DNA of 64,000 nucleotides. It comes from Antedon mediterranea (taxonomy: Eukaryota > Animalia > Echinodermata). A program made the translations under genes and the position numbers. Positions within the stretch are counted from its first letter, which is position 1; each line of letters begins with the position of its first letter. This document shows, piece after piece, positions 12,031 to 59,609 of the stretch. The notes beneath the pieces were generated by a model. It had not been told where the DNA came from and searched no databases. It worked only from the letters and a program-made list of their open reading frames with translations. The DNA lies in NCBI RefSeq assembly GCF_964355755.1, contig NC_092674.1:14260001-14324000 (forward strand). Reading direction: 5' to 3'.

Positions 12031-12099
12031 ACAAGAAAGTGATACTGATGACATAGTTGTGAGTCCTTTTCTATTTGAAGGATTAAACAATATCATCCC

Positions 12100-16436: not shown

Positions 16437-16583
16437 AGGATCGTATACTGAGCTGATTATAGAAAGAACGTTTCTTCTAGTTGGTTGTCGACTTGGTACA
16501 ACATTCTTAAATCCAAGAGTATCAGTGCCTACTGACCATCTAATTCCTAGAGCTCGTTCTATCGAAAGTTTCTCATAATCTAA

Positions 16584-32192: not shown

Positions 32193-32594
32193 TGTAGTGA
32201 ATTTATCTTAGTTGGTTCCGAGCTTTCTCAGGCGTATATATTTCCACGCAACGTACACAGCTGTCACTGAATGATAACTCATACAAAAAGTATATTTAAC
32301 TCAACTAGAACTTTTAGTCCTTGTAATTCGATTAATACATCTTTCTACCACTACCAGTCAAGCCTTAATATTCTCTTTATCATCTTTCCGTTTAATTACT
32401 TTGATCTTATTCTCTCTTTTCTTAATATCTATTACATTCTACTTATTATACTGGATATGCAAATTTTAGGCTTCAGAGGAGGATAACATTTTCCCTCCAA
32501 AAATTATACAATTTTGATTGGCTAATAATAAGGCGGACCTGGTCTAAAGCATCCTTCTCTAAACACAGAGAATCACAACATCAATAATATGACA
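32193..32594 (-). repeat. Gypsy 3' LTR
   Basis: Matches 51573-51973 with about 5 differences by eye; polypurine tract AAAAAGGGGAA adjacent at 32595-32605. Confidence 0.95.
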
Positions 32595-32695
32595 TTCCCC
32601 TTTTTGGGAAAAAGATTGTGTCAATCTTTCCAAAAATTTAACATTTAAAACCATTTTACTTTAAACTATCTACTAATAACACCTCTATAATATTA

Positions 32696-33136
32696 TTATG
32701 CACGGCTTAATCCATCTGCATTTCCATTTAGTGATCCTTTCTTGTAAATAACTTTAAATTTATATCCTTGTAAAAACAGAGCCCATCTCATAAGTCTAAC
32801 ATTGGCACCCTTCATTAAGTCCATCCATCTCAATGCCTGGTGGTCAGTATGAACTTGAAATTCACAACCATACAGATAATACTTAAGTTTATTGATAGCC
32901 CAAACAATAGAGAGGCACTCTTTTTCTGGCACAGAATATCTCTGCTCATGTACAGATAACTTTCTACTTAAGTACACAATAGGATAATCATTACCCTCAC
33001 CATCTATTTGGCTCAGCACTGCACCTATGCCATAATTTGAGGCATCGGTTTGCAATATAAACATCTTATCAAAATGTGGGGCTTTTATACATTATCATCA
33101 GTAAGACGTTTCTTTAAAGTTACAAAGGCATTTTCT
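32696..33136 (-). pseudogene. Gypsy RNase H domain
   Basis: FILQTDASNYGIGAVLSQ...EKECL...TDH...NADGLSR; frameshift near 33085. Confidence 0.92.
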
Positions 33137-34291
33137 GGGCAATTCCATGCAAACATGGACATGACCAAAAAAATTCAAATTAATTAGTCAGCTCAAAATT
33201 TGTGTTTATGTTACTCTTTGAATATGTGGGAACTAGGTTTTTAACTTTTTCAATTCATTTATGACTTTTTGCAGCCAAAAAATTACGTTTATTCAATGTT
33301 GAATATATATTTTTTTTTAGGTGTGAAAAATAGGTAATTACGTTAACTGATTATTATTTTCCCAACAAAGCAATATTTATAAAGTAACATGTCTAAGTAA
33401 TAGTACACTTAAGATGTATGGAAAATATGATATAACTACAAATGTTGAATATCCCATATAGGAGTGCTGTGTATATTCTGTTATATATTAGGGTATGTAA
33501 TGCGAGTGACAAAAAAAATGATTTTTTTTTTTTATACCATCATGATGATAATTTTTTTTAATGAAATTTTATAATTTAGCTATACTACTTTGAACAATTA
33601 AAATTTGACAAATAAAAAATCCACGTAAATACAAAATTGTTGAGACATTGAAAAGTGAAATGCGAGTGACATGTAATGCGAGTGACGTTCAAAAATGGAC
33701 AATGTAATGCGAGTGACATTACCACAACTCTTTTTTTTGTAAAGTAAAATAGTAATTAATCTATCATTAGTTATGAATTAGTCCCAGAATTAGTATATAC
33801 ATTAATTTCATAATACAATGTGTAATTTGGCCCTTATTTGGAGGCACTACAGTATAATAATTATAGCATTAGGTTTGTTGAGGGCACAATCCCTAGCAAC
33901 GACCTTTTTGCAGTTAAATCATTTGAAAAATCAATCATTATAAGAGCTCATTAAATAAAAAACACTAAATCTGGTGAGATTTAACAAATTTGGTACAATT
34001 TTTTGTGAAGATAAGAAGGAAGGTAAGAATAAGTATACATTTATATTTAATCAAAATTTTTTTTCTTATATTGTTAGTGTTAATTATTTCAAATTCTATA
34101 ATTTGAAAACACCGCATAGGCCTAGGCTATAATAAGTAATTTATATATTATTATTTATATATTATTATTTACTAGGCATATTTTACATCACCAGGTCTAA
34201 AGCATTGTAGTTTTAAAAACAAAATATATAATTGCTTATTATTTAAAAATAATTTTAAAATATCATTCACATTTGCATCCTGCCTTTAGAA

Positions 34292-34570
34292 ATGGCCAAA
34301 CGACAGAGAAAGTACCTAGAAAAACTGAAAGCCGAGGGAAAATACACCTCATACAGAAACAAACAAAATAAAATTTCGAAAAGAAGTAAAAAAGTAAAAG
34401 AAAAGAGAAAATTCTAGCTCTGCCACCAGCTTTGAAGAAGCAGAAGATTGATGCTCTTAAAGTTGCTAATAGAAAACGTGTGGCTATTAGTTCAGAGCAA
34501 AGAAGGCTGCTTTGGCATCAGACGGACCATCACCTTTTAGAAGTGCTATGGCTTTGCTAAAGCCACTACC
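34292..34570 (+). pseudogene. Basic N-terminal remnant of the carrier element's transposase
   Basis: MAKRQRKYLEKLKAEGKYTSYRNKQ...NRKRV...SPFRS; frameshifted, no catalytic core; resemblance to Sola2 N-termini is from recollection only. Confidence 0.45.
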
Positions 34571-36212
34571 AGGGCAAAAAGAATGCTTGATGCTGGTTTG
34601 CGAAGAACTTTGAGTTCCATAATTTGTAAAATGGCTGTTTGAATTTTCTATTTTCATTTTTAGTGACCGTATAAGTGTTCTGTTACTGTGTTTGTAAAAA
34701 ATCAAGATATTCTGTTAGTGTTAAAAATAGATGATGTCCTCTAGAACTTCATCCAAATGAGTTGAAATAAAAGTTTTTACTTGAAAATTGATATAACATT
34801 CTTTGAGTGGTTTAATGTTGCATTATTTAATTATTGTCTACTTTTCTTTCTGCTTTGCTTAGTAAATACTAAGTTCACTTCTTACGGGAATGCGAGTGAC
34901 AGTAATGCGAGTGACGGGACTTTTTTGTTAAAATGTAAAATATTTTTAAAATCTATGTAATGTTGAATTTTTTTATTATCCTATTTTATACTTTAAAAGT
35001 ACAGTAATTAAAAATATAAGATCTTTTGATTTATATATTTTTAGTTTAAGGACACGTTCTTATCAAATCTAATCAAATTTTTGTTGTGTCCTTTTTGTGT
35101 AATGCGTGTGACAGAATTTCGCAATGGCGTCATTGTCGAAGTAAAAGACATACAATTTTTTTTATAGTATTTTATTAAAGACTTGCACCTAAAGTATGTT
35201 CATATAAAACATTGACTTAAAAATCCAATTAGTGTGTTCCTTCCCTTTACCAGCTAACCCGTCATATATAAAGCTCTAGCGGGTCGGCCAACCTCAATTT
35301 TCATTAGGCCTAAGTGACAACTCACCTTGGTATCAAAGTAAAGAGCCGCGATTTACGAGAGCCAGCTGTAATAAATCACAGCTTGTGGTCTGACAGTGCA
35401 AGATAAACAGATACAGTGTATATATAGCAAACGAAACAAAATAAATGTTTCCGTAAAGAAAAAAATAAAAGTATTCATACAGTTGTATTCATTATAAAAA
35501 AATATTGTTTTTACATGTTCGAATCGTGAAAATCGGTTAAGTTTAAGTGGAGCTAATGAACAAAGTTAAAATACACTTTCAATCATGTGAATGTTTACTA
35601 AAGGGCGTAGTGATAGTAATTCCTCGATGATGCACTAGGCCCGACATAAGACGCAATGCTGTTTTAGTATATCTATTTGTAACACTTTATCACGTTATTT
35701 TGCAGTAAATATGTTATATTATAATGTCAATATTATGATTATATTAATTATTGGTGAAAAACGATTTAATTTATTTTGATGTAATAAAATTACCGAACTA
35801 TTTTCTTGTGCGTAATTAGGTGACCGAGTCGCGCGGCTGCTAAGAAAAAAATACACTATTATTGTGGCCGCTGCACACGTGGTCGAGAGCATGTAGCTGG
35901 TTTACTTGATTGAATGGCGTATTAATTTTATATATAATAAAGATTTTTGATTATCTTAGAAGGAATAAAGTACAGCTTTTAAAAATAAATTATAATATTA
36001 TACGTATACCATAATTGTTAGTATGAATGAATGAGAAAAATATTTTTTATTGAGTAAAATTTAGGAACTTTTTTTCGCGTAATACAACGGTCGCATTACG
36101 TAATGTATGTTCGCCGCCCCTACCGTGGCAACTTTAATTAACTCAGCACTGTGCGAGGTCAGTTATTATTTTGTTGACGTTAGTACAATGTGTTGTTGGT
36201 AAGCTCCAAAAA

Positions 36213-39016
36213 ATGGCAGAAATTATGAGTGTTGGCAGCCGTGTACAATGTGTTGACAGTTTAGGACGATGGGAGTACGGGCGGGTGGTTGCTTTAGCCG
36301 ACGACGATGATGGACTAATTAAAGTTACATTTCCTGGCTGGTCGTCGGAGTGGGATCGTTCTGTCACTGTGCAAGAAATTCGACTGCCAGTGCAGCCGAT
36401 AGATAAACAATTTAAACGTAAGTGTATATTTATTAATTATTCTGAATTGTAGCATTAGATAGTCAATCCCCGGGCTACAGTTCATCATACTGTGCTAGGC
36501 CTAGGTGGATAAGTTTTTGACTTTAATCATTATTATAGAGAATGAAGTAGGTCTAGGCTAGGCCTATGTTAGTGTGACGATATGATTAAGACTTGAAAGA
36601 GTGAGTGCAGCGGCGCGTCGTAGGCCCACCACCGTGTCCGAGACTAGGCCTATTTATAGGACAATTCGGATAGACTGTTTTTTTTTAAATTAATATCTAG
36701 CTTTAAAGAAGGTAGCTTGGCCTACCCTACCTATATACATACACTATAATCATGCAGTACAGAAAAATCCCAGTACAAAAATTGAGGTAAATTAATCAAT
36801 ATCCTCGGGTGCCACACTAGTGACTAGCTTGATCCTAAAAATAGCCTGCCTATGAAGGGTAGGCTACTAGTAATTATGTCCTTTTTTTAAAAATGACTAC
36901 AGGAATTATGAAATATGTGAATAAGCTGTAGAAATAATTACGAGATTCTGCTGAAAGTGCATATCAGTCATTTATGGAAATTCATTATTAAGTTATACAC
37001 GGTATTAAATATATATGTTATACAGGTTCAGTTCCAGGTGGACATAGACGGTCTATTAAGAAACCTACACCTGAGCAATTAGCGACTTTTAAAAATCTGA
37101 CCTCAGAAGATGAGGTACTTGTAGGAGATGCATCTTTACAGGTCGTTGAGGTCGACAGGTTCAACCAATCTTTGGTTGTAATTAGGGACAACCACAGAGA
37201 AACAATTAATATCACTGAGTTACAGATAAAAGATAATGGAGGTATGTATTAAGTCCATTAACAATTGTGTATAATAATTAACAGCTGTTTCTTTTATTTT
37301 TTAATTAAAGAATCCTTTTTGTTTATTTTAATTAATCTTCTTACTTATCTATAATTTCTCATAAATCTGGTTGAATAGGCACTCTTTGAACTAATTACTC
37401 AATGCTAAAATTACAGGAAGTTGGTTTATATGTCTTAATTAATGTTAATAAACAATTATTTCTTTATGCTTACTCACATAATTTGGTTGGATAGGCACTC
37501 TTTTGATCTAATTACTTAATTCTGGTTCAATAATGATGATTAATGTTAAATATACAATTACTTTATGCTTTTGGTTGCATAGGCACTATTTTGTTTAGTA
37601 TCTTTAATCTAATATACAACTGTACAAACAATTCATTAATGTTAATTAAATTAGAAACACTTATATATTTTAAATTAGAAAAAGATATTAAATCATAGAA
37701 ATATTATAGTAAACTATAATGTCTCTATCATTAGATTGAGTTCTATCTATTGTATTATCTGAATAATGAATAATACTTTTTTTAGTGCAAGTTTTTTAAT
37801 TAAATCAAAGATAAAAATGCACTTTTATGATATCTGTATGATGGTGCTTTATTTTGTTTTCGATTTCAATAGGCAACCAAAATTCTAAAAGGGCAGCAAA
37901 AAAACGAAAGTCTTGCACTGTTTCTTGTGAACTTCAAACACATGCTGTACAGACAGACAGTTGGGTAAGTTTTTAAATTGTCATATAATTTAAATTATAG
38001 CTTTGTGATTGATTTACAGTACTTGTTTATTTTGTTCTAACATTAAGGCAGATAGTATTAGTAACATGGTTGTAACCAGCTCATTTGAATATACTAAAAT
38101 AAAACATCTTTTCTCTATTCCTTATTCTAGTTATCGACTGACAGCGACACCTTATTAGCTGTCACATCATGCATTGATGAGCTATATGGTATAGCAGTAG
38201 GAGAACTATATAAGGTAAAAATTGTTAGTGTTAGCATTTGTCTACTGTACTATGAAATTGTGTATTGTACTAAAGACTACATAATCAAACTTTATGTAAC
38301 AAAATGCCCATACAGTATGAATACGCTAATGTCATATTGTCAGTAATTTGGATTTATAATTTTTTGTTTTCTTTCAGATCAAGAAAAGCAACTTATTAGT
38401 TGCTGTAACAAACCTCGACTTATATAAACAATTAGCTCATTGTGTCATTTATATGGATGGTATTGATCTGGATTCTACTATCATCATTCCATACAATCGC
38501 TTAGATGTTTCTTGTGTGCCACTTTCCTGTGGATTGGACAAAAAAATGTTGGAGGAGTTCAGAAATAAGGCAAGTTCGCAAACTATAGAGAATCTCTCCA
38601 TATTAGAGTACAGAAAGCAGTTCCGAAGGGTGCAGTTGGCAAGTGCTATAAAATGTGAAGTAGGAGTGGTATTAAAGAGGAGACTGCGAGCTGTAAATCA
38701 CATGAACTTCGGACTTCTGACACCAGATGTTGATTGTGAAATGTTGCATTTCAACTTGCAAGAGGGTAAGAAAGCTAATAAATTCTCTTATAAAAATAAA
38801 AATCTTGATATGCTTGATCACATTTTGGGTAATGAATGGGACATCCATAGGTTTGAAAATGGAATCTCTTATGTAACAAGTTTGTCCATTCATATAAATA
38901 AGAAAAAGTACTTGGTAGGGTCGTTAGCAGTCGCTACATATAATGGACTTGTAGATGCAAATTATCGTCAACAACTAGGTGCTCACATGGTACATGTGAG
39001 GGATTGCTTGGACTAA
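36213..39016 (+). CDS. Five-exon gene, 411 aa, with N-terminal Tudor/chromo-barrel (Tudor-knot-like) domain; exons 36213-36417, 37026-37241, 37873-37964, 38131-38214, 38378-39016
   Basis: All introns GT-AG with compatible phases (1,1,0,0); 1236 nt open to the stop; VGSRVQCVDSLGRWEYGRV...IKVTFPGWSSEWDRSV fits the chromo-barrel pattern. Confidence 0.8.
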
Positions 39017-39591
39017 ATTGTCAATACTGTATGTAAAAACATTTTTAAAGATGCATTGTTTAAAAAAGCAAGACAACTGTGCTTTGTTGTTTTTCAAAAA
39101 TAATTTTGACTACTGTAGAGCATGCTTGCAATTCAAATTCCGTCCAATTTTCTTATTTGGCAATACATCTTTAATTGTTTCCGTATTGAAGAAAAGTCAT
39201 ATAAATAGTACTATTTAAGGATTTTACAAGTATTGTAGATTAATTGATTTGTCTTGTCTTACATGTTAAGTAATAAAAACAATTGTTGAGTTGCTTTTAT
39301 GAAAACTAAGGGGATAGTTTATCTAAAGGAAATTGGGGAAAATGTGATTTTTTTTGCTTGTTCAATCATGGAGGTATACTCCATGGTTCAATAAACACAT
39401 TAGAACATTACTAAAATCAGTCAACCCACAAGGGCAAATTTTTTAGTCACATTAACAGGTTTTAAATACTATTAAGTATTATTCAACTTCTTTTTTTGTA
39501 AGAGCAACACAATTATTGTTTTTTTTACATTGTACGCTGCCAACACTTATAATTTCTGCCTTTTGTTCTATGTAAATTGTATTGTACAAGT

Positions 39592-42500
39592 ATGAGTATC
39601 TCGGGACATTTTATTAATGGCCTATTGTGCAAGGTTCACCATCATGGTGCATCATGCAGTATAGATTGTTTATTGGAAGTTTTTTATTGGGGTATTTTTC
39701 CATTTACCAAAACTAAAATTTTCTCTCATCCCCTTCTCACAAGATTGTTTTATGTTTCAAATCTAAGAAAAATAATGCCTCTACAAACACCACCTTGTGA
39801 TATTCGGGAACCTGTTTGGAATTGGTTAGTTGAAAATTTACCAAATGGATTTTCCCCAAAAGGAACACATCATGCAGAAATACTGCAGGCCTTTGAATGT
39901 TTATCTGACACAAATATTGGCATGTCATTTGTTGCAAACTTCTTTGGAAATCAAAATCTACATTGCCAAAAGTGTCAGAGCTCATTAGATATTAACATTC
40001 TCACAAATTCAGTATATAATTACTCGCAATCGCTAAATGAAAAGTATCCACAAAACTTCAGTAAATGCATAGAGGAAGTCATAAGAAATACGATTTCACA
40101 TAAGTTAAAATGTAAATACAAGTGTAATTGTGGAGAAATGGCAAATACATTAAAAGGGCAATGTAGGATGCCTGAATTCCTTGTGGTAAACCTTGGGCTT
40201 GTGGGATGGCAAAATTGCCAAAAACCACCTATTGTTGTTCCCGAGAGAACAACCATACACTCATCCAGTTATGTTTTAACATCCGCTGTACAAATGGAAC
40301 CATCACACTTTATAGCAATTTGTAAAACTAATAGGGGTTATTCAGTCATTAATGATATGGTGCCATATACCAAGACATACCATACTTTTGCAGCAGCTGC
40401 TAACAGAAATCCCAAAATCCATTGCACATCAGTACCACTTGCAAGTTCAAAGGGCAAGGGAAAAATGGGGGGTATTCATTTGCTCATATACGCAAAAGTG
40501 GCGAGTGCTGAATGGCCGATGTTATCTTTCACTTGTCCAAAGCCAATAGAGGACCTAAATTCATCAGACCTTCCTACACAGGAATTGCCTACTGGTTCCA
40601 AGAATATGAGTACCAAAGAAAAGAATTCAGTAGATGACTTAAACAAAATGCCGATTGACTCTACTTGGCAAGTGCCACAGGAATTGCCTACTGGTTCCGA
40701 GAATATGAGTACCAAAGAAAAGAATTCAGTAGATGACCCTACTTGGCAATTGGCAAAAAAAAAAAAAAAACTTAATAAAAAGAAACATTCAGTAGATGAA
40801 TTAAACAAAATGCCGATTGACTCTACTTGGCAAGTGCCACAGGAATTGCCTACTGGTTCCGAGAATATGAGTACCAAAGAAAAGAATTCAGTAGATGACC
40901 CTACTTGGCAATTGGCAACAAAAAAAAGAAAACTTAATAAAAAGAAACATTCAGTAGATGAATTAACCAAAATGCCGATTGACTCTACTTGGCAAGTGCC
41001 ACAGGAATTGCCTACTGGTTCCGAGAATATGAGTACCAAAGAAAAGAATTCAGTAGATGACTTAAACAAAATGCCGATTGACTCTACTTGGCAAGTGCCA
41101 CAGGAATTGCCTACTGATTCCGAGAATGTAATTAGCAAAGAAAACCTATTATTAGATGGTTTGACTAAACCTGTACTTACTGATTTAACTAATTGTAACA
41201 ACAATGTTATTAAAAAAATAAATATCGGTGATGTTAACATTGAAGAAAAGGAAAATATTTCCCCTCATCCTAGGAAAAAACTCACTCAATGTAAAGTAAA
41301 AACAAACAATTTTGAACAATCTAAAAACTTTGTTGGAATTAAGATTGCAAAAAATAGTATTGTAGATATAGATATTGAAGCCATTGGTTCGACTGACATA
41401 CCACATACAATTTACAATGATAACATTTTCCTTAGCTGTCAGGAAATATTAAAATTATTAGGCCAGGAAAAAGAAATAAAAGCACGGGGATATGTCAAAT
41501 TCGACAAAATCCTTCAAGAAATGGGCCAAGACCCAAATCAAATGTTTCTTACATGTGGCAGCCGCAGACAGAGGCTCTGGGTAAAAAAAGAAGCTATAAT
41601 AAATATGTTAATGCACAAGTCATTTAGAAAACAAAAAACAGCTAATTTTGTTATGTTGCAATTGCAAGAGAAATTTAAAAATAAGAAATCTAAACTTGAG
41701 AAGACAAAATTTATTGAAAACAAGCCTCCACAAAAGACTCAAACTAGTTCATCCCCTACAATTAAGAAGGTAGATTTGAACTACAGAAAAGGAAATGTAA
41801 TTATTGATGGGCATCTTGTCAGTTACACAGTAAATGCAAATGGTGTGATTCACTTTAATACAAGTGAAATATTTTCAGCATTAGGTTTATTAAAACACAT
41901 TAAAAAGGAAGGGTACAAATATATTGATAAATATCTTAATGATCAAGGACTTGATTTTAAATCTTGCTTCATCATGAACGGTCCAAAGCGAACCTACATA
42001 ACGCTTCATGCGGTACACACTCTTATTTTATGTTTGCCAAACAGAATGATTGAAAGTGCAAAAAAGACAACTTTGTCCAATTCTGTTATTCTTGCACTGC
42101 AGCACATCACAGTAGAGAAATCTTCCGAAAACATACCATCTAAAAAAAAAGAGAAGTTCACGGTTGATGACAAAACAAATTTGTTAGAAAGTCTTAGTTC
42201 AATGTTAAGTGCAACAAAAGCAAATGACAATCAACGTTTAACAATAGATGATGTAGTGTCTGTATTGCATAAAGCAAGTATTAAATCACAAAAAGGAGCA
42301 AAAATTGTTAGAGGAATTGTAACCGATACATACAAATTATTAAACCCACTTAATGGTGAGGATGTAATTAATTGTCGCGAGAATTACAGTGGTTGTCGCC
42401 TTATGAACCGCATGAGAAAATTAATACCTGGGGTTCTTCCATCCAGAAAAACCGAAATGAAAGCTTCAGCCAAACTTAATGAAGAGTTTAGGGCAGTTTT

Positions 42501-44832
42501 GTGCCCACGCAGAACAGCATCTGGGTGGTATATTGACCCAGTCCGTTTGGTCGAAGTTTTGCTTTTTAAATATTCCTTTTTACAAGACAACATAAGTATG
42601 AAGATTCAAGGAGATGGTGCTCAAATGGGTGGGCGTAAAATTACTTATGTGGGGATTTCATTTCTCAATCACGAACTAAAGCTGCGTGGCCTCTCCTATC
42701 AAAATCCAAAAGAAATTTACCCAATTACACTTTTTTATGAAGGCGACGATCGTGATAACTTAGAAGAAAACCTAAAAATTCCCTTTTTGGAAAGATTAGT
42801 TCAGCATTTTAAATCAAATTTTACATTTTATTTAAGTGGGGATGAAATGTTCATCCAAGGTATACTGGATGGGTCATCTGTTTTAGGACCACTAACCGAG
42901 AAAGGTTGGAATATATACAATGAATGTAGCAAAGAGTCAAAAAAAAATGTATCAGAAAGTGGTATGCGAACAGACTTGTCCATGCCTATTGATCGTATCC
43001 ATCCAATTTCATTAATGCCTTCAATTCCACTTACCCATACACTTCCATGCATTCTTCACTGGGTTTCAAGGTGCACTGAAAAACTTTTATCATTGGAAGT
43101 TGAGAAAATATTTTCGCTTGGAAATAAATTAGCCGAAGTTGATGGCTCTTCAAATATTGAAGACCTAATAAAAAATTTAGAGACAAACATTAATTTACGA
43201 GGCATAAAAAACGGTAATTTCAGAATACCATTAGACAAAAATGGAAAACCAGAGCAGATTTCATTAAACAAAGATGCTGCAATCACGATAATTTGCCCAA
43301 CTCCCCTAGGAAAAGAAAAAGAATATCCACATGTTTTACATAATGTTGTCCCAACTTCAAAAATTAATAACAATCTACCTAAAAATGTAAGAGATTTTCT
43401 ACAACTAGACACTGATCTAACTGAACTTAGTTGTGTAAAGATGATATGGGAGAGTTTGTATATCATGTTTAGCATAGTACAGAAAGAACCAGAACACAAA
43501 ATTAAGTCAAGTTGTGTTGCAGGTTCTTTAAGACCGTCTGATTACAATTGGGGTTATTCCAATGATCAAAAAAATCAATATAAATTTCACGCAGAGAGGC
43601 TGTACCAACTGGTTTGCCTCAGATACAATTGGCACAACTTAACCCCATACATGATAAAATTTATTGATTATGGGGAACATTTTTTATCAAGGGACATTCC
43701 CTTATGTAGGTTTTCCACAGAAGGTGGTGAGCACAGCCACTATGATCGAAACTGCTTTTATTTCCACCACACAACTAGACATGGTGGGAAAAATAGTGTT
43801 GACCCAAACCTGGCCCAATTTAGTACTGTGTGGCGCAGGCTATCATATGACATCATTCATGGAGAAGATGAATCAGCTAAAAAAGCATTTGAGGTATATG
43901 TCAAAATGCATGTTGCTGCATCAAAAATACAGCGATGTTTTCGATTATTCTTGGTGAATAATTCTTTGTCTAAGTCTGGGTACATTCAAAACCCACAGAA
44001 TGAACATGAAAAAGCTAAAAACTTAATTTGTTTATCTAAGTTAGTACCACAAAATGTTATAGATTCAACAACTAAGAAATTATTCCGTGGGAAATCGTTT
44101 ATTTTAACTGGAAGTGTCCCAAAGTTCCAGGGGAAAAAAATGACTCAACAAACAATAACTGAAATGATAAAAGCAAATGGTGGTAAAATTAAAAAAAGCT
44201 TACCAGGAAATTCAAAAAGATCCACGAAAAAATACATAATCTTAACAAATCTTGCAACTTGCAAAAAAAGTACCTTTAAAGTGCCAAATGTCATAAAAGA
44301 TGGCGTGAGACGGCGCAGTCATGTTGTTGACTACAGTTATATATTTTCATCTATAGAATCCAACAGTCTACCTCCTTTTAGTATGCATGAACCAGAATGC
44401 CTTATGCAAATAAAGCAAAAAGTTTCGTTGTTGCCAACACTTAATCAGATACACTTTAAAAAAAAATTTCGAATGATATCTATCCTAAAAGGTCCGCGAA
44501 AAACTAAGGCAGTTATCCGAGAGCCAACACTTAAATGTGCAAAAAATGTTGCAGTTTTTTATGCCAATATAAAAAGAAAAGAATACATCAAAAGCAATGT
44601 TGGTGTAACTTTTAAAGAAAGTAGTCAATTATTTTCAAAGTATACCAAAGAATACAATGCTTTAAAACACAATGAAAAAACACATTATACAAGAATGTGG
44701 CTAAATAGCCGATATTCTAAGGCTAACCAGGCTAAAAGGTTAGCTGACCTGAAATCTTACAATTATATAAAAAAACCACAATATTTAGAAGCTACAAAAT
44801 GTAGTCTTGCTCAATCAGTTGCTCAGAATTAA
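39592..44832 (+). CDS. ~1750-aa multidomain RAG1/Transib-like DDE transposase/recombinase (USP-like protease, repeats, 2x Bro-N-like, DDE core, IQ, BRCT, HMG box)
   Basis: Uninterrupted 5.2-kb ORF (first ATG 39592); motifs IQGDG, LSGDEMF, PCILHWVSR, LTPY, FSTEGGEHS; SCSIDCLL/SHFIA/INDM; FRGKSFILTG..NGG; AATAAA at ~44907. Confidence 0.75.
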   Translation: MSISGHFINGLLCKVHHHGASCSIDCLLEVFYWGIFPFTKTKIFSHPLLTRLFYVSNLRKIMPLQTPPCDIREPVWNWLVENLPNGFSPKGTHHAEILQAFECLSDTNIGMSFVANFFGNQNLHCQKCQSSLDINILTNSVYNYSQSLNEKYPQNFSKCIEEVIRNTISHKLKCKYKCNCGEMANTLKGQCRMPEFLVVNLGLVGWQNCQKPPIVVPERTTIHSSSYVLTSAVQMEPSHFIAICKTNRGYSVINDMVPYTKTYHTFAAAANRNPKIHCTSVPLASSKGKGKMGGIHLLIYAKVASAEWPMLSFTCPKPIEDLNSSDLPTQELPTGSKNMSTKEKNSVDDLNKMPIDSTWQVPQELPTGSENMSTKEKNSVDDPTWQLAKKKKKLNKKKHSVDELNKMPIDSTWQVPQELPTGSENMSTKEKNSVDDPTWQLATKKRKLNKKKHSVDELTKMPIDSTWQVPQELPTGSENMSTKEKNSVDDLNKMPIDSTWQVPQELPTDSENVISKENLLLDGLTKPVLTDLTNCNNNVIKKINIGDVNIEEKENISPHPRKKLTQCKVKTNNFEQSKNFVGIKIAKNSIVDIDIEAIGSTDIPHTIYNDNIFLSCQEILKLLGQEKEIKARGYVKFDKILQEMGQDPNQMFLTCGSRRQRLWVKKEAIINMLMHKSFRKQKTANFVMLQLQEKFKNKKSKLEKTKFIENKPPQKTQTSSSPTIKKVDLNYRKGNVIIDGHLVSYTVNANGVIHFNTSEIFSALGLLKHIKKEGYKYIDKYLNDQGLDFKSCFIMNGPKRTYITLHAVHTLILCLPNRMIESAKKTTLSNSVILALQHITVEKSSENIPSKKKEKFTVDDKTNLLESLSSMLSATKANDNQRLTIDDVVSVLHKASIKSQKGAKIVRGIVTDTYKLLNPLNGEDVINCRENYSGCRLMNRMRKLIPGVLPSRKTEMKASAKLNEEFRAVLCPRRTASGWYIDPVRLVEVLLFKYSFLQDNISMKIQGDGAQMGGRKITYVGISFLNHELKLRGLSYQNPKEIYPITLFYEGDDRDNLEENLKIPFLERLVQHFKSNFTFYLSGDEMFIQGILDGSSVLGPLTEKGWNIYNECSKESKKNVSESGMRTDLSMPIDRIHPISLMPSIPLTHTLPCILHWVSRCTEKLLSLEVEKIFSLGNKLAEVDGSSNIEDLIKNLETNINLRGIKNGNFRIPLDKNGKPEQISLNKDAAITIICPTPLGKEKEYPHVLHNVVPTSKINNNLPKNVRDFLQLDTDLTELSCVKMIWESLYIMFSIVQKEPEHKIKSSCVAGSLRPSDYNWGYSNDQKNQYKFHAERLYQLVCLRYNWHNLTPYMIKFIDYGEHFLSRDIPLCRFSTEGGEHSHYDRNCFYFHHTTRHGGKNSVDPNLAQFSTVWRRLSYDIIHGEDESAKKAFEVYVKMHVAASKIQRCFRLFLVNNSLSKSGYIQNPQNEHEKAKNLICLSKLVPQNVIDSTTKKLFRGKSFILTGSVPKFQGKKMTQQTITEMIKANGGKIKKSLPGNSKRSTKKYIILTNLATCKKSTFKVPNVIKDGVRRRSHVVDYSYIFSSIESNSLPPFSMHEPECLMQIKQKVSLLPTLNQIHFKKKFRMISILKGPRKTKAVIREPTLKCAKNVAVFYANIKRKEYIKSNVGVTFKESSQLFSKYTKEYNALKHNEKTHYTRMWLNSRYSKANQAKRLADLKSYNYIKKPQYLEATKCSLAQSVAQN
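40570..41130 (+). repeat. In-frame coding tandem repeat (units 99, 162, 162, 99 bp)
   Basis: CCTACTG(G/A)TTCC anchor at 40588, 40687, 40849, 41011, 41110; QELPTGSENMSTKEKNSVDD. Confidence 0.92.
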
Positions 44833-45503
44833 ATTATGAATACAGTGCTAAAGCTTGTATTTGTGTTGTGTATCCTTTAATACAGTAGACTGGTACAGGT
44901 AATTTCAATAAAACATTTTTCTTGTCATTTTCTCAAATCACTAAGTCCATTCACTAAACAATTCATACTGTATGTTTCAAGTAAATATTGCCTATGCTAG
45001 TGCAAATCGATTAATAATGTACAGTACAGTAGGTATCATTTTTGGCAGAATAATAATGTGTGGAAGATGTTAGATCACTTTACAATATTTATGGCAATAT
45101 AAATCATTTATGATAATAAAAATCATTTATGGTAATAAATAAACATGTTTTTATAGTTTATGGCGTTTTAATATTATTTTTCTATTTTAACATAAGTAAC
45201 TAAAATTTAACAAAAAGTGGTTTTGAATTATACAAAACAACTTCTTTTTTTCAAAACTGTTTATCAAACTAAGATTATATTTGTCATATAGGTATTATAT
45301 AATACTGTAGTATAAAGGCCAATTTACAAAGATGAACGGTAACGGTTATAAAAATATAGAATGTATGTTATACCTTATGACCATTTACACACCATGCAAA
45401 GTGGACAGAGGTTTCCTTTCAGGATGTGTACAGATTCTATGTGATTTTCTGCTTATCATTACTCATCTCTGTAAATTGGCTTTAATTGTAAAGTATATTA
45501 GTA

Positions 45504-46460
45504 TTTCCATTTACTTTTATGTGTAAAATTAATTCAATAAATCCTATTCTTGTAATAGTATAGAGAATTTACAAATGAATTGGCTTTAATTGTAAAGTAG
45601 TATCTATATAATAATTGTAGTAGTAGTAATCTATATATAAGCGTGCCATCTAGTAAGTACAATTGTTGTAGTATGTGATAGTGATCGTAGGTAATAATAA
45701 TAGGTAGTAGTATAGTACAGTGGTACAATTTTTAAATTATGTTCTTTTAAAAATTATTTTACATTCCAATAACAATATTCACAGCTTTACAATGCAATTT
45801 AAAGTATTTATATATAACTCGGGAAAGTTTCCATTTACTTTTATGTGTAAAATTAATTCAATAAATCCTATTCTTGTAATAGTATAGAGAATTTACAAAT
45901 GAATTGGCTTTAATTGAATTGTAGTAGTAATAATAAGTACAATTGTTGTAGTATGTGATAGTGATCGTAGGTAATAATAATAGGTAGTAGTATAGTACAG
46001 TGGTACAATTTTTACATTATGTTCTTTTAAAAATTATTTTACATTCCAATAACAATATTCACAGCTTTACAATGCAATTTAAAGTATTTATATATAACCC
46101 GGGAAAGTTTCCATTTACTTTTATGTGTAAAATTAATTCAATAAATCCTATTCTTGTAATAGTATAGAGAATTTACAAATGAATTGGCTTTAATTGAATT
46201 GTAGTAGTAATAATAAGTACAATTGTTGTAGTATGTGATAGTGATCGTAGGTAATAATAATAGGTAGTAGTATAGTACAGTGGTACAATTTTTACATTAT
46301 GTTCTTTTAAAAATTATTTTATATTCCAATAACAATATTCACAGCTTTACAATGCAATTTAAAGTATATTTATATATAGCCAGGAAAAGTTTCCATTTAG
46401 TTTTTATATGTAAAATTAATTCAATAAATCCTATTCTTGTAATAGTATAGAGAATTTACA
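45504..46460. repeat. Tandem repeat, ~280-325-bp unit, ~3.3 copies
   Basis: TTTCCATTTACTTTTATGTGTAAAATTAATTCAATAAATCC at ~45504, ~45828, ~46108, ~46390. Confidence 0.9.
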
Positions 46461-46504
46461 GTTTGTCTTAAGCACTATTATTTTTAGTTTGTGAAAATAG
46501 ACAG

Positions 46505-46795
46505 TTTCAATTGGGTAGCACACTGTTTCAAAATGGATAGCACAATGTTTCAATTGGGTAGCACACTGTTTCAAAATGGATAGCACAATGTTTCAATTGG
46601 GTAGCACACTGTTTCAAAATGGATAGCACACTGTTTCAAAATGGATAGCACAATGTTTCAATTGGGTAGCACACTGTTTCAAAATGGATAGCACAATGTT
46701 TCAATTGGGTAGCACACTGTTTCAAAATGGATAGCACAATGTTTCAATTGGATAGCACACTGTTTCAAAATAGATAGCACAATGTTTTAATTGGA
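46505..46795. repeat. Minisatellite of alternating 22/21-bp units
   Basis: GCACACTGTTTCAAAATGGATA and GCACAATGTTTCAATTGGGTA, about 13 units. Confidence 0.92.
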
Positions 46796-47396
46796 AGTTA
46801 AAAAACCTATAAATGACAATAAAATATTCACTATTTTATTCACTTTTTCAAGACAATATTTTACCTCCGCCAAGGAGGTATATGTAGCCACATAAGTTAT
46901 TTACTTTGACCAAAAATTGGATTAAAAAAAATAATTTATAGCAAAAAAAAAATCAAATTGGTCGAAAGTCAATGGTTTTTTATAGAATTTACATTTTTAT
47001 TAAAGAGAAAACATTTTTTTAACTGCAAAATTGCTTATTTAAAAAATAAATAAAATATTAATTGCTCATGTTTTTGGGTGACAATACTGTACATCTTTAT
47101 AATTAAGCACATAATAATACTATTACAGTAGAAAAAAAAACACCAGAGAATTTAGAATGTAGTTCCAGTTTACTTGGCAGAGAGCACTAGCTGACCTTGC
47201 TTGAGCAATAAAACTTCCTAATCTAAACAAGCTATAATGGTAATCCAATTAAAATGCAATTACCAGTCCTAGACCTTAATCCCTAAAATGATGGTCAGAA
47301 ATCAGCAAAATTGGTAAAGGGAAGGAACACCTCATGCAAATCCTAGACTAACAAAAATGACTGTAATGTGTAATGCGAGTGACCATGGAATTGCCC

Positions 47397-48059
47397 TTCA
47401 CATTGTTCATTCCACTTAAAGGTATTACTTTTACTCTTTAAAGTTAAATCAATCAATGGCTTAGCAATATCGGCATAGTTCTGTACAAATTTTCTGTAAT
47501 AGCCAGTTAATCCGAGAAATGATCGGACTTGTTTCTTAGACAAAGGTCTGGGGAACTTTTCCACAGCCTCAACCTTATCAATCATGGGTCTAATTTCTCC
47601 ATTACCAATCTTATGCCCCAGAAATTCTACCTGTGCATAGGCAATTTTACATTTCAAAGGCTTTGCTGTCAATCCAGCACTACTTAATCTTTCTAATACA
47701 TCATTCAAATGAAAAATATGATCTTTCCAAGTTTGACTATAAATACATATGTCATCTATATATGCCTTAGCATATCCCTCAGTACCTTGTAATACCTTAT
47801 CCATTAATCTTTGGAAAGTACTAGAGCTATTTTGCATACCAAATGGAAGTACATTGTAACAATACTGTCCAAATTGTGTAATAAATGCTGATTTGTCTTT
47901 GGTCTTAGGATCCAGAGGCACCTGGTAAAATCCTTTAGTTAGATCTAACGTAGTTATGTATATTGCGGATGATACCTCATCCAACATTTCGTCTATGCGA
48001 GGCATAACATAAGGGTCAAATTGTGTAGTCTTATTTAGTGATCTAAAATCTGTCACCAT
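47397..48059 (-). pseudogene. Gypsy reverse transcriptase (N-terminus deleted)
   Basis: DFRSLN, LDLTKGFYQV, LPFGMQN, AYIDD, FLGLTGYYRKF. Confidence 0.95.
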
Positions 48060-48062
48060 TCT

Positions 48063-49399
48063 TTACTATTTCCTACTGGAAGGAATATCAACACTTTGTC
48101 CCCTTCTACAAATTCTCTATCAATAGCATTCTTGTTATAATTGTGGGACATAATTTCTTGTTGTTCAAGTTTGTTTACATTAGCATCGTTCATTAATTCC
48201 TCCATTTTTTCTCTTATTTCTAACATGTATTTGATAACATCAGTAGATGTTTCTTCATCTTCTACCCAATTACTTTTGAGTAAACTCAAGGGTCCTCTCA
48301 CCTCTCTACCATAAAGCAATTTAAAAGGTGAATGGCCCGTCGCTTTACTAGGAACTTCTCTGTATGCAAACAGAAAGGGGGGTATGTAGTTATCCCAATT
48401 TTTTCTTTGCTTAACTGTAAGTGTCCTTATCATATTTTTCAATGTACCGTGAAATCTTTCAACAAGCCCATTGCTTTGGGGGTGGTACACTGTAGTCTTT
48501 AATTGATTAATCCCCAACATACTACATATAGATTGCATAATTGAAGACATGAAATTAGTTCCTTGATCATGTACAATCTCTTCGGGTAATCCTACTCTAG
48601 TAAAGACTTCTATTAGAGCCCTGGCTACTGTTTCAGCTCTAACATTGGGTAACGGGATAGCATCCGGATATCTCGTAGCATAGTCAATTATAGTAAGCAT
48701 ATATTTGTTATTACGGCTTGTTCTAGATAAGGGTCCAACAATATCTATCGCTATACGTTTAAATGGTGTACTTATAATCGGTAATGGTATCAAAGTATGT
48801 TTCCTTTTACTTTTACCCTTATCTACCTTTTGGCATTCCTTACAGACTTTACAATAGACTACCACATCTTTAAATATACCTGGCCAATAGAATTGGTTCA
48901 GGACCCTACTTTTAGTTTTCTCAACACCCATGTGACCTGCAAATGGCACATTATGACCTAAGTGTAATACACCCTGTCTACACTGAGTGGGTAATACAAT
49001 CTGTTCCACTTGGTTATTCTTATCTTTAATACTACTCCAATTTCTCATCAATATACCTTGTCTCATAAAGAAACATACCCTATGCTGACCTATTTCTTCT
49101 ATAGGGACTATCCTGTCAAACACTCCTTTGAGTGAGTCATCCTTAGTTTGCAATTTGATCAGTTCTTGTTTAGTTAGCTTGTGCTGTTGTTCATAAGTTT
49201 TATGTTTGACTGTTTTATCTTTAGCTTTATCCTCATTTTCGTCAAACAAATTATTCATTTCTGTTCCATTCATATCATCTAAACACTTAGTTTTATTTAC
49301 TTTGTTGTCATTTACTACTGTTTTCAACAATTGTACATTAGTTTCTTTAGGCGGCTCTTCTATCAGCTTAAAGTTACTATCTTTCCCTAACAATATCAT
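48063..49399 (-). pseudogene. Gypsy integrase (C-terminus deleted in this copy)
   Basis: H-x6-H...CxxC, DIVGPL, HDQGTNF, NGLVERFH; diverges from the second copy after VGNSK. Confidence 0.95.
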
Positions 49400-49960
49400 T
49401 TCGTCTTGTATTCTAACATCATTTCTATTCTGGCTTGCTCCCTAGTTAGGACGAACATTTCTTTAGCCATTGTTTCCCCACAATTCTGGTCCAAATCATG
49501 ACCCAATAACATGTCCCTCTGTAATCCTTCGATTACGGCTACAATCACTTTTCCTGTCACTATCTTACTTTCTATAGCTACCTCAGCTAAGGGGACGGTA
49601 ATATCGCCTCCTATACCTCTTAACGTAACCCATTTTCCTGGCAAGTAACATTTGTTAGGCACTAGACTTTCCTTAACAGCTGACTGGGTACATCCCGAGT
49701 CTCTAAGCATAGTTATATCCTGTCCTTCTAATTTTCCTGGTATTGTACATTTCTCCATTTTATTTTCTACACTATCTATAACTACTTGGGGTCTATCTGA
49801 TTTTAGTCCTTCACATCTTAAGCCATCTTTCACATTCGGGCCCTTCTTAGTGTCACTAGTCTTTCCTTTTGCTACCATCTTAGGACAATCCCCTATTTTA
49901 TGTCCCTTCTCCTTACAATTAAAGCATAAGCCATTAATCCATTCATTAGAAGGTTCTTTC
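49396..49960 (-). pseudogene. Gypsy zinc knuckle and aspartic protease
   Basis: CFNCKEKGHKIGDC upstream in frame; LRDSGC and MLLGHD protease motifs. Confidence 0.9.
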
Positions 49961-51026
49961 TGTTGGAAATTTCTACCATAGTTATGGAATTTGCCTCCCC
50001 TTCCGTGATACCTACAGTATTGTATCCTTGCTGCCTAGCTCCAGGGTTATTCTGAGTCGTACTATTCTTAGGTTTACTATTTTCTTGGCCCTTATAATAC
50101 ATAGGCTTATTTTCAGAATTTACGGCATTCCAATAGCCACGGCCACCTCTATTAGCTATATAATCATCGGCTATCATAGCCATATCATAGCTCTTATTTA
50201 CTTGTTTATCTCTAAGATAAAGCCTCAGATCTTCAGGCATTTTATCAAGTGCCTGTTCCATTATAATCATTTCAATAATGCCTGCAGCATCATCTTCTTT
50301 TACATTAGCACATTTCATCCAACATTTTAAATAATGGGAGAGCTCATTCAGCCATTCCCTGATGGACATATCTTTAACTCTGTTTGAATTTCTAAATTTA
50401 AATCTGTAGGTCTCTGCGGACACATCATACTTTTCTAAGATTGCCTTCTTTAAGGTATCATAATCTACACATTCTTTTACGGTTAAGGATGCATATGCTG
50501 TCCTAGCTTTACCAGACAGTTCAGGTGCTAACCTAGCGGACCACGTATTCTTATCCCAACCTGTGGCTTCTGCCAAGTGTTCAAATGTTCTAAAATATAT
50601 ATCAATATCATCTGATTCCTTCAAAGTAGGAACCTTTACCTTCATTTCATCTACTATATTCCTAGCATTACTGTAGCTAGACCTATTTTCTAATTCCATC
50701 ATTTTCACTCTTTCTTGTGATTCAATTTTTCTTTGCTCTATATCTATTTTCTGTGGCTCTATATCTGCTTCTAATCTTAATTGGTCTTGTTGGTATTGTA
50801 ATTCTAACCTTTTGTTTTCGGCCTCGGCCTCGAACTTCATTCGAAAATATTCGAGCATCATATCTTTAGGCATACCGCCGGGTATTTCGGGCAAATCAAT
50901 ATCCCTAGCCATGTTATCATACATTTCATTGACTTGGTCAACCTCTTCTTGGTCAACCATCTCTTCCCTAGTATCTTTTTCTGACATAGTCTTATCTATA
51001 TTTTTACCCGATCTTAAAGTTGTCAT
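49893..51026 (-). CDS. gag: Gypsy gag with SCAN-like capsid region (frameshifted before the zinc knuckle)
   Basis: MTTLRSG start; YFRTFE..W..W, LKKAILEKY..ETYRFKFR, IIMEQAL..MPEDLRLYL. Confidence 0.9.
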   Translation of the reverse strand: MTTLRSGKNIDKTMSEKDTREEMVDQEEVDQVNEMYDNMARDIDLPEIPGGMPKDMMLEYFRMKFEAEAENKRLELQYQQDQLRLEADIEPQKIDIEQRKIESQERVKMMELENRSSYSNARNIVDEMKVKVPTLKESDDIDIYFRTFEHLAEATGWDKNTWSARLAPELSGKARTAYASLTVKECVDYDTLKKAILEKYDVSAETYRFKFRNSNRVKDMSIREWLNELSHYLKCWMKCANVKEDDAAGIIEMIIMEQALDKMPEDLRLYLRDKQVNKSYDMAMIADDYIANRGGRGYWNAVNSENKPMYYKGQENSKPKNSTTQNNPGARQQGYNTVGITEGEANSITMVEISNRKNLLMNGLMAYALIVRRRDIK

Positions 51027-51558
51027 GCTAATAACAATTTTACTAATGAAATATGTAAACTTATGTATACAAAATATGTTATAAAAGTATTTGTATTACC
51101 TTGATTCCATTCAGATATGTAAAAAATATGAAATCCACATAAATTTTTAAATGCAATACAATCTAAGACATTAATTTACTTCAAAGTCACAAACAACGTT
51201 CCAAGTTCGCTCCGTACAAAAATTTGCTTTCGAAATAAAAAATAGTTTACAAAGTCAGCTTTGCAAATCTTCTCAAAATTTTCTGGGCTTCCTTCTGTTA
51301 CTTCAGTCTTCTTCTTTCAGATCTCGGTGAATATATACAGTATCTCCGATGAATATCCAGCAGTCTTGAGTAGGTACCTTGAGCTCAACAGTACTTCTTC
51401 TTCGTTGTAATATCCAAACAACGCACGGTATAAAAACTGTCAGGAATCCAGATCTTCGTAACCATTTAACTTTTTGGTTACTGATTTAACAGGCCCGTAG
51501 AGTAGGCACTGTCACTTCTTCTTCTTCTTGATACTTAAATCATGTATACAAAAATTTT

Positions 51559-51572
51559 CACCGCTGCCACCA
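51559..51572 (-). promoter_or_regulatory. Primer-binding site complementary to the tRNA-Leu 3' end
   Basis: TGGTGGCAGCGGTG immediately after the 5' LTR; mirrored at 57916-57929. Confidence 0.85.
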
Positions 51573-51973
51573 TGTAGTGAATTTATCTTAGTTGGTTCCG
51601 AGCTTTCTCAGGCGTATATATTTCCACGCGACGTACACAGCTGTCACTGAATGATAACTCATACAAAAAGTATATTTAACTCAACTAGAACTTTTATTCC
51701 TTGTAATTCGATTAATACATCTTTCTACCACTACCAGTCAAGCCTTAATATTCTCTTTATCATCTTTCCGTTTATCTACTTTGATCTTATTCTCTCTTTT
51801 CTTAATATCTATTACATTCTACTTTTATACTGGATATGCAAATTTTAGGCTTCAGAGGAGGATAACATTTTCCCTCCAAAAATTATACAATTTTGATTGG
51901 CTAATAATAAGGCGGACCTGGTCTAAAGCATCCTTCTCTAAACACAGAGAATCACAACATCAATAATATGACA
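51573..51973 (-). repeat. Gypsy 5' LTR
   Basis: TG...CA, 401 bp, primer-binding site on the inner side, TSD CTCAT on the outer side. Confidence 0.95.
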
Positions 51974-54900
51974 CTCATTCTAAAACAGATTTCCTTATCA
52001 TAATAAAATAATATATGAATTTAAATGTAATATTGTATACATAATATTAGTAATTGCCATTGCATTTATTATAATTATATATTATACGGTTACCCCTTAA
52101 TTATACTATAGTATAATTTTCTTGTTATATTTTACAATATTTTCTTCATAGTTCAACAATTTTTTCTTTCACAGGAGAAATTATCATACTGAATCATCAC
52201 ACACCAAGTCTCATAAATCTCTACTGTATTTCTCCAAGGTACTCCAGCTACATGGTATTGCCTTGAGGCTAAACTACAGTAAACGATATACTGGCACTAC
52301 CATCATTCCTGGCCCGTCAACCTGGACCACATTACAGTATGGTCCAACACATAAGTACAGTAGTCGTACTACTGATTCAAAATAGTGAATTACACCCTGT
52401 GGTCAAGGCTTTATTTGCTCTTATGCTTATTTCCTCCAAATATAGAGTACGTAGGGCTTTCGATTTGCTTTTATACCAGTTAATTTAAAAATCGTTTATG
52501 CCTATTGTTGCATAAAGTATCAAATTTAGACTGTAAATACTGGGATGATCACCCTAAATTTTCTTTTTCAATTAACAATTTTATATTTCACAGCTGAAAA
52601 ATGCACTAAAGCATCATATAGAGATTTTTTATTCATAACTGTTAAATTGCATCCCAATACATGGTACCTATATAAAAATACAAAGGCGGCCAACACAGAT
52701 AGTTTGATATATACAGTACTCTCTTATAAATAGATGTATATCTCCAAACTACTCCAACTACCTAATTAGCATACTACTGTACACTTTGTAGACAAGAAAT
52801 AAATTGTATCCACCTAGAGGACTTATGGTAGTACAGTCGATCGTCCTGTCACTGGCCCGGTCAACATAATCTACGCCTAGATTATTACAGTAAGTACATT
52901 ATTACAGAGATTTTTTTTTTTTTTGCAGAAATCAAAGTTATGTGTATAGAAAGCAGTACTCGTATTAAAAACTAAGCAGGTTATATTCTTGTACGCAAAC
53001 TGGCAGGATATTTTGAATATTTTTTGTTGTTGAAATGATGGAATCCTAACTTCATTTTCCACGAGCTGGAGAGTGACAAAGACATATTACGACCCTTTTA
53101 TTTAAATTTATTTGGATAGACCTCTATGTAAATTCATTAAAGGCTATATTATTGTTTTATATTTTAATATGTGATAGTAGATAATCATTGTGCATAATGA
53201 AGACTATGAATCTAATATTTACTTGCATTCTCATCTTTTTAAAATTGTATTTATAATGCTGGTAATGAGTTTACTATTGAAAAAGTCATGTTTCCACTTA
53301 TCTCAAATTGTGGCACACCTCTAACCTTGGTAGAACTGACTGTGTTCTACATGAGTACATTTATTCTGCCATATAGTAGTGTTTCCACCATACTTCAACC
53401 TGGTAATTGAATAAATTTCATCGGGGTAAAATTTAAACTAATTATCACCTTTTAACATAAAGTATCCTCCTGAAAAATGTTTGTACTGTACTTCATCTAA
53501 TATCCATTACTTAATACTAATTTGGGTGATTTATGTCTAACTTCAGGAATGATCTGAGGCTAGAAGAACGAATTTCTGTACATATAATTTATATAAAAAA
53601 TAAACCAATGTTTTCCTAATAACTTAACCCCTAGGTTGATAACTAACAAAGAAATTATTGAAATTGTGTTCTTACAATATATGTGTACTGTATCTACATA
53701 TGCATACTGCGTTCAAAAGAAGAATGTTTTATAGTTATTATAGGTAACTGGTTATTTCCAAATATTAAAGGTCTGATATCTAACATAAACTAAATGTTAT
53801 CAAACTATGTTTTTGAAAATCTTTATGATATAATAATTATAATAATATGAACATAATATTAAATTATATTGACTATTTTTGATAATCATCATGTCCTTAT
53901 AAATTCATTTATATTTATTTTGTGGTAATATAGTTTATATATTATGTATTAAATAAATTGGTAAGGCCCTATACTGTTTATATTTAAGGAAAGTTTATAC
54001 ACACTTTTATTTTATGCCTACCAATATTAGTATTAATTGTTTATGTAACTATTTTGTCTAATTGCATTGAATTTTTGTATAGGCCAATGGCATTAATGTT
54101 TTTCTCAAAGCAAATTAGCCTAATAATGCCATATTTAGACACACAATTCATTGATTTCTGATATTCTGTACTTGTGTATGCATTACTAAAATAGTAGTTA
54201 TTTTATTACTTTTATAATGTATAAACATTTATTCATTTTTTTTTTACATTTTTTAATTTAAAAATTATTAAAATACCTATCTACCTTTCTGTTATTGTTA
54301 CTATTATAATATTTTTTGAGGCAGATTGATTTCAATAAAAAAGAATTTAAAAAATTAATTTGACTTATACTGTACTATGTTAGTTCAGGAGATGAAGTGT
54401 GTGTGGGCAGAATCTGGTGTGTTGGAGGTTGGTGATGTGAGGTGTAAAGTTGTCACTTTAAGACCTAAATTAGATGTTTTCTGAAGAAAAGAAGTAAGAG
54501 GATAGGCTTTCAAACAACTTCAAGAAGATTCACACAGAAATATTTACTTCCCAATAAATAGTATTTATACCAAGTATCAAATGTTTTTGAATACGAAAAA
54601 TATTTTTTATCGATGTTTTTTGTATATGTTTTTAAGCAAAATTCTATCATAACCCTAATTTTTAATGTTCAATGTGATATTTATTGAAGTGCTTTGAATA
54701 CGTTGATGAAATTTGGAGGTATGAAACTTTGTTAGGAGTAGAATCAGCTTCAAGCATTAAATGTTAAAAATATGTTTATATTACTCATTAATTAATAATA
54801 ATTATTAATAAATTAATAGAAAACTAGAGAGGGCGCTTTTCGACAAGAAAATGAATGTTTTTTTATGTGTGTTATTTTTCCGCTCGAGTTTATTCAATGT

Positions 54901-59595: not shown

Positions 59596-59609
59596 GGGAT
59601 TGTCCTAAG

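Follow-up and report, generated by a model that had tools for sequence, protein, structure and literature searches.

A putative two-gene DNA transposon of Antedon mediterranea encodes a catalytic core of predicted RAG1/Transib fold that lacks the zinc motifs

The stretch of Antedon mediterranea DNA that was analyzed (64,000 nucleotides, called the window in the following) contains a 12.1-kb element with two genes and inverted ends, which is likely a cut-and-paste DNA transposon. The core of its putative transposase has a predicted RAG1/Transib fold, and the element likely represents a separate, CMCT-related lineage of marine invertebrates. We assign a probability of about 0.8 to this reading. 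The initial annotation had described the region 42340..43800 as a RAG1/Transib-like catalytic core; this span proved to be the core only, not the whole protein, and it lies inside a multidomain transposase of 1,746 aa. The features of the element and of the element that surrounds it are the following.

33137..47396, no strand assigned: host element, with 13-bp inverted ends GGGCAATTCCATG and a 4-bp flanking duplication with one mismatch
35226..47336, plus strand: whole putative DNA transposon, about 12.1 kb, with inverted repeats; the outer few left bases are uncertain
35234..35252, plus strand: left terminal inverted repeat, 19-bp perfect core
36213..39016, plus strand: gene A, 411 aa, five exons (36213-36417, 37026-37241, 37873-37964, 38131-38214, 38378-39016)
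39592..44832, plus strand: transposase ORF of 1,746 aa when counted from its first ATG, readable without an intron, stop-free frame 39577-44832
39610..40506, plus strand: likely USP/papain-type cysteine protease, with Cys27 (39655), His244 (40306), Asp260 (40354) and two Cys pairs
40577..41199, plus strand: linker of in-frame tandem repeats, 162/99-bp units
41344..42111, plus strand: two tandem domains of about 100 aa each, conserved in homologs
42280..43875, plus strand: catalytic core of predicted RAG1/Transib fold, with D1013 (42613), D1057 (42745), D1089 (42841), H1161 (43057) and E1385 (43729), without zinc motifs
43903..43956, plus strand: IQ-like motif; 9 of 30 homologs have a Pfam IQ match, while Pfam made no such call for the window protein
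44077..44379, plus strand: BRCT domain, Pfam BRCT_2 E 8e-9, above the cut-off, also in 18 of 30 homologs
44524..44736, plus strand: likely HMG box; family profile versus PDB gave TFAM E 6e-6, Nhp6A 3e-5, HMGB1 8e-5
45504..46833, no strand assigned: subterminal tandem repeats in the right part of the element, 280-bp and 43-bp units
47312..47336, minus strand: right terminal inverted repeat, made up of the 19-bp core (47312-47330) and CATGAG at the terminus

The five motifs listed in the initial annotation were all present, in the order claimed and within the one stop-free plus-strand frame. KIQGDGAQMG (42601-42630), FYLSGDEMF (42826-42852), PCILHWVSR (43045-43071) and FSTEGGEHS (from 43711) were in frame, and they place the two D codons (42613 and 42841), the H codon (43057) and the E codon (43729) at residues 1013, 1089, 1161 and 1385. 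LTPYM was also found, at 43639-43653, but it is without the histidines of the RAG1 motif with which it had been equated. Taken by themselves, the five motifs are so short that they could arise by chance, and thus conservation in the family decides whether they are real. For this comparison the 50 cores with a BLAST span above 430 aa were used, out of 184 family proteins. D1013 and D1089 were kept in all 50 cores and E1385 in 49, the remaining one having a gap at this position; the D-D-E triad, which had been called intact from the single sequence, is therefore kept across these cores. H1161 was kept in 49 of the 50 cores, and the position of D1057 was occupied by D or E in every core. We take D1057 to be the likely fourth acid, equivalent to that of the RAG1 DEDE tetrad.

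At E<=0.001 the core had 344 relatives among 50%-identity representatives, and the named ones were Holothuria leucospilota and Glandiceps talaboti. Seven cores of Holothuria leucospilota had pairwise identities of 46-67%. The dN/dS value was about 0.10 for the loci L002 and L003, while the other five of six pairs were at or near saturation, and the family thus appears to be under purifying selection. The tree that was built comprised family members only. None of the homology searches with the core or the family had a RAG1, Transib or CMC sequence among its matches, and the family profile search returned family members only, plus one marginal match at E 1.5e-3. Single-sequence Pfam searches with the protein and the core gave no RAG1 and no transposase match, Pfam transposase families matched neither the window protein nor the 30 homologs scanned, and neither RAG1 nor another transposase was among the four matches at E<=10 of a single-sequence PDB search with the core. 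When the family profile was compared with PDB sequences, HMG and BRCT proteins were found, and RAG1 was not among the best 60 of the 78 matches.

Because sequence profiles do not reach RAG1, the link to RAG1 rests on predicted structure. An AlphaFold2 model of the core, for which an alignment of 72 sequences was used, had a pLDDT of 94 and a pTM of 0.90. In this model D1013 lies on strand one of the RNase H fold, D1089 terminates a later strand and E1385 belongs to the helix that follows a helical insertion, so that the three residues would form one cluster. A Foldseek comparison with RAG1 and Transib structures, which had been proposed in the initial annotation, returned mouse RAG1 as the top match (E 3.8e-10, TM 0.54, 12% identity), and HzTransib (E 4e-7) and the P element (E 3e-5) were also found. 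With VIA the core model matched RAG1 (Z 21.1, rmsd 4.0, 408 aligned), HzTransib (Z 19.1, rmsd 4.3, 390 aligned), BbRAG1L (Z 18.9), the P element (Z 13.4, rmsd 6.8), ISCth4 (Z 8.5) and Hermes (Z 8.1). By Atlas features the core scored 0.90 against a cluster in which 38% of the members carry RAG1_RNase_H. The PDB lists hold no EnSpm, Chapaev or Plavaka structure, and therefore the closest similarity to RAG1/Transib may reflect solved structures only, and the ranking does not distinguish a Transib from a CMC ancestry.

The core is accompanied by several accessory domains. The N-terminal domain is likely a USP/papain-type cysteine protease: the Cys motif was present in all 28 proteins that span the region and the His..Asp pair in 24 of the 28, and weak Pfam matches in homologs were to Peptidase_C98 (0.0097), UCH_1 (0.0035) and Josephin (0.0064). 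In the protein P0027 of Glandiceps talaboti a ubiquitin domain precedes the protease-like domain, and the HMG box is detectable with Pfam. The place of the linker is taken by unrelated repeats in relatives. The two middle domains had no significant match in Pfam, PDB-profile or PHROG searches; they may resemble BRO-N/KilA-N DNA-binding domains, a reading of BRO-N that Pfam, the PDB profile and PHROGs did not support. The BRCT assignment is firm. The Lys-rich C-terminus likely holds an HMG box, which is a modest call: a second alignment matched Nhp6A at 3e-4, and Pfam HMG_box was found in only 1 of 30 homologs.

Gene A lies upstream of the transposase; all of its introns are GT-AG, and it has no internal stop. 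It was 32% identical to the partner gene of the related locus L001 (E 8e-56). Its predicted layout begins with tandem Tudor/chromo-barrel domains, continues with a long helix and ends in an alpha/beta C-terminal domain. The model of the gene A protein of locus L014 (pLDDT 70) showed two confident barrels, a disordered middle, the long helix and the alpha/beta domain, and its barrels matched the MRG15 chromo barrel (Z 9.7, rmsd 1.9, 57 aligned) and also Tudor/Agenet domains. A pattern W..F-x-x-W-x(2-3)-[WYF] was kept in all six gene A N-termini seen, and may form a methyl-lysine cage. The C-terminal domain had no structure match, though Tudor domains filled both match lists; its Atlas scores were all below 0.8, and a homolog search yielded one protein, from locus L008 itself. 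A Pfam toxin domain on exon 5 was dismissed as chance (E 0.21). A complex prediction for the core and gene A exon 5, made without alignments and with an uncertain partner fold, scored 0.00.

Homologs of gene A adjoin the transposase in 5 of the 24 related loci (L001, L004, L008, L014 and L015, of which L014 and L015 are one family). It was not found in the other 19, the majority of which are shorter than would be needed to contain it. Three arrangements were seen among the relatives, i.e., gene A followed by the transposase, the transposase followed by gene A, and the two in convergent orientation. In four gene models, three of them from H. leucospilota, gene A was fused to the transposase. 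In an intron-containing subfamily (L014:1981-9124, L015, L017, L018 and L006) gene A is convergent to the transposase, the orientation of RAG1 and RAG2.

The family differs from the known groups in its zinc site. Four zinc ligands (ZnC2, ZnH2) stabilize the fold of RAG1L according to the accessible parts of two sources (PMC7204232, 10.1101/2023.08.20.553239), and C(2)C and also H(3-4)H, located between second D and E, are common to all CMCT lineages in the available text of Kojima 2025 (PMC12730594); as far as these texts go, the site is described as shared and fold-stabilizing in RAG1, Transib and all CMC transposases. In contrast, a CxxC (C(2)C) lying between second D and E was present in none of the 50 family cores, and H(3-4)H before the E in only one of the 50. 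Since the zinc motifs are absent family-wide, a separate, CMCT-related lineage is likely. For the same reason the family falls outside RAG1L, Transib, Chapaev and CMCT as these are defined, which does not refute a RAG-like way of working. The initial annotation had spoken of a RAG1/Transib/Chapaev-related enzyme; the fold and the conserved residues agree with this, but membership is not borne out, as zinc motifs, RAG2, Chapa/RING and a CAC end are absent. A large family without zinc ligands under purifying selection would show what the RAG1 fold requires, and would widen the range of RAG1 relatives.

Comparison with the single groups gave likenesses as well as differences. The family shares with RAG1 and RAG1L (6xny, 6oes, 6b40) the predicted core fold over about 410 residues, the DDE residues and a histidine like H795, but the identity is 10-12% and the ZnC2/ZnH2 ligands are missing here. 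The N-terminus of RAG1 is C1-C3/RING, whereas here it is likely a protease, and a BRCT domain and a likely HMG box are fused in addition. RAGL transposons are also two-gene elements; their partner is RAG2L with kelch and PHD, while the partner here, likely histone-reading, has predicted Tudor/chromo barrels. No RAG2 was found, and the element is without further ORFs of at least 100 aa except short frames on the opposite strand. Transib (HzTransib 6pqx, 6pqn) is similar in its predicted fold and as a TIR element of invertebrates, but it keeps the zinc domain and CAC ends, and the element here adds a second gene and five further types of domain. The available part of PMC4411706 describes canonical Transib as core only and Chapaev/Chapaev3 as having a Chapa zinc finger at the N-terminus, sometimes together with RING; in contrast, the N-terminus here is a conserved Cys-His-Asp protease-like domain, and there was no Pfam RING match. 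A DDE core with a long insertion and 5'-CA..TG-3' ends, the termini given for CMCT in the text available from PMC12730594, are shared with CMCT (EnSpm/CACTA, Mirage, Chapaev, Plavaka, ESTA, Lanisha), from which the family differs by the missing C(2)C and H(3-4)H. The P element transposase (6pe2) was the next fold neighbor after RAG1/Transib with a much weaker match, and no THAP match was found here.

It is conceivable that the family is instead a derived member of a described CMCT lineage (EnSpm/CACTA, Chapaev, Plavaka, ESTA, Lanisha, Transib), perhaps one in Repbase, and that its zinc ligands were lost secondarily. Two-gene layouts and accessory proteases are known from CACTA-type elements, which speaks for this possibility, as do the CMCT-like ends and the closest clusters in the Atlas, which consist of cnidarian proteins without a name. 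In addition, TIR and TSD are labile within Transib, and Transib ends can vary, according to the accessible part of 10.64898/2026.08.26.747230. The absence of the very motifs that are common to all those lineages, the missing Pfam transposase match and the family profile search that, apart from one marginal match, stayed within the family argue against it, and we consider such a derived member somewhat unlikely. No description of a family of this kind was found among the titles and abstracts listed from largely open-access literature, and BRCT occurred in none of the 20 matches listed out of 41 in one of the searches.

The ends of the window element read 5'-CAATTAGTGTGTT on the left and 5'-CATGAGGTGTT on the right, and the right end fits the end pattern of L001. 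A 19-bp inverted match between both flanks arose in 1 of 500 shuffles. The repeat was not conserved in 23 related loci, the best of which had 5 mismatches. Element ends were found in 4 of the 24 related loci. At L014 they are inverted and 9.3 kb apart with the transposase between them, and L014 and L015 share 99.8% identity as far as the right end and have divergent flanks thereafter. While RAG1L and Transib ends start with 5'-CAC and resemble the RSS heptamer, the ends here start with CAT: CATTAC opens all four genome-flanked ends of relatives (L014 twice, L015 and L018), and CATGAG is the right end in the window. The CATTAC ends also speak against a reading of the ends as 5'-GTG..CAC-3'. RAG1L and Transib have target-site duplications of 5 bp and CMCT elements ones of 2-5 bp. 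No target-site duplication was present at L014; in the window AAATC(C) flanks both sides, one base out of register with CA..TG ends.

The host element interrupts a Gypsy pol gene, and the Pfam RT and RNase H domains lie on opposite sides of it. Inside it are a 12-bp motif that occurs eight times and, near 34290, a short ORF that is broken, and it may resemble Sola2. This nesting bears on the idea that the locus is a host gene for a recombinase or for DNA repair (BRCT, HMG and DDE) that arose by domestication and has a chromatin-reader gene as its neighbor. Purifying selection and domains typical of repair proteins would fit such a gene, but the locus lies between inverted repeats inside other mobile elements, many divergent paralogs exist within one sea cucumber species, and one family (L014/L015) has different right flanks in two assemblies. 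Domestication is thus highly improbable, and the cut-and-paste transposon is the likely reading.

Judging from intact frames and young copies in relatives, the putative transposase may be active. Full-length copies of the family on separate large contigs were 97-99% identical, though they may be alleles from separate assemblies. The transposase reading could be right and the window copy, or the family in this host, could nevertheless be no longer mobile. The left end of the window element has two extra bases compared with the right end and is unlike it in the outer bases, and therefore this copy may be immobile; the window of 64 kb also holds no second copy, and the element has no clean TSD. 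However, neither gene is disrupted (gene A has five clean exons and the transposase a 5.2-kb ORF), the 19-bp repeat has no mismatch, and in the three-level nest the element forms the youngest layer, so that we regard a loss of mobility as unlikely. Intact, young elements of 9-13 kb with short ends are candidates for biochemistry.

At locus L001 the contig has a 69-bp terminal overlap and, when closed, gives a circle of 13,083 bp with a continuous ORF of 1,911 aa and gene A. It contains one palindromic joint of two ends, GTAATG then ATTAC, which is one base short of perfect. Because the 20-bp arms of the joint are shorter than the overlap length, the assembler is unlikely to have invented it. 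The joint of two ends is thus real, but it does not tell an excised circle from a tandem array, and L001 may be either. In our judgment the odds are slightly better than even that L001 represents copies in head-to-tail tandem, or a loop made in assembly, rather than an excised circle of the signal-joint type: the contig opens and closes inside the tandem repeats of the ORF, where the overlap lies, and tandem copies would assemble identically, whereas the joint is missing one base and contains no target spacer.

A mechanism can be proposed by analogy with RAG and HzTransib. In the accessible part of PMC6941560 the catalytic residues of RAG1 are D600/D708/E962, HzTransib forms hairpins on the flank and blunt ends, the bending cofactor of RAG is HMGB1/2, and RAG2 reads H3K4me3. 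By this analogy a transposase dimer would pair both element ends, and the fused HMG box would bend the DNA, a role filled by host HMGB1 in RAG. Two metal ions on the D-D-E residues would then nick and release the element, with hairpins on the flanks and blunt element ends, and the released element would be joined to a new target. Alternatively, host repair could ligate the released ends together, which would give an end-to-end joint of the L001 type. The BRCT domain could tie the complex to repair factors, and the protease might remove ubiquitin or SUMO and, with BRCT, handle repair and turnover. Gene A would direct the complex to methylated histones, as the PHD of RAG2 does for RAG1.

The fused HMG box and the histone-reader partner would thus parallel the use of HMGB1 and of the RAG2 PHD by RAG, and this parallel offers a natural test of how helper functions are acquired. 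A more far-reaching, tentative reading joins all these points: a new, superfamily-level and still active branch of the RAG1 fold across marine invertebrates, which is zinc-less, carries its HMG box in cis, acquired a Tudor/chromo-barrel protein independently as a RAG2-like chromatin-targeting subunit, and leaves signal-joint-like excised circles. We think it unlikely that this combination holds as a whole.

A viral origin of the family was rejected, as 0 of 94 pattern matches lay in viral contigs and the best viral fold had E 7e-4 and TM 0.27. One of the 24 loci, L024, comes from a prokaryotic genome; here the family member lies on a 3.8-kb contig of a Sedimenticola MAG, which is likely host DNA that was binned with the bacterium.

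The window has about 32% GC and contains GT-AG introns and Gypsy and BEL/Pao elements. Among the sequencing runs listed, four from a single study contained 0.89-0.91 of the query words and may be its source, three had small shares of 0.08-0.10, and there was no RNA run that contained the words. The interrupted Gypsy copy (47343-51026, minus strand, and 32193-33064) has a SCAN-domain gag and an integrase before the RT, and its RT and RNase H are split by the nested insertions. A 13.4-kb near-perfect palindrome at 48063-61425 carries Gypsy gag-pol-int in inverted duplicate; its arms of 4,361 bp are 100% complementary, and either a true fold-back or an error of assembly could explain it. A BEL/Pao retrotransposon occupies 7131-20369, with ORFs at 14118-20073 on the minus strand and direct repeats (7131-7412 and 20088-20369) that are 99% identical. 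The segment 7407-7693, which adjoins one of these repeats, recurs at 28347-28633. Related AT-rich tandem arrays with 102-bp and 63-bp units lie at 20461-21931 and 26602-28131, and the latter has inverted arms and is foldback-like.
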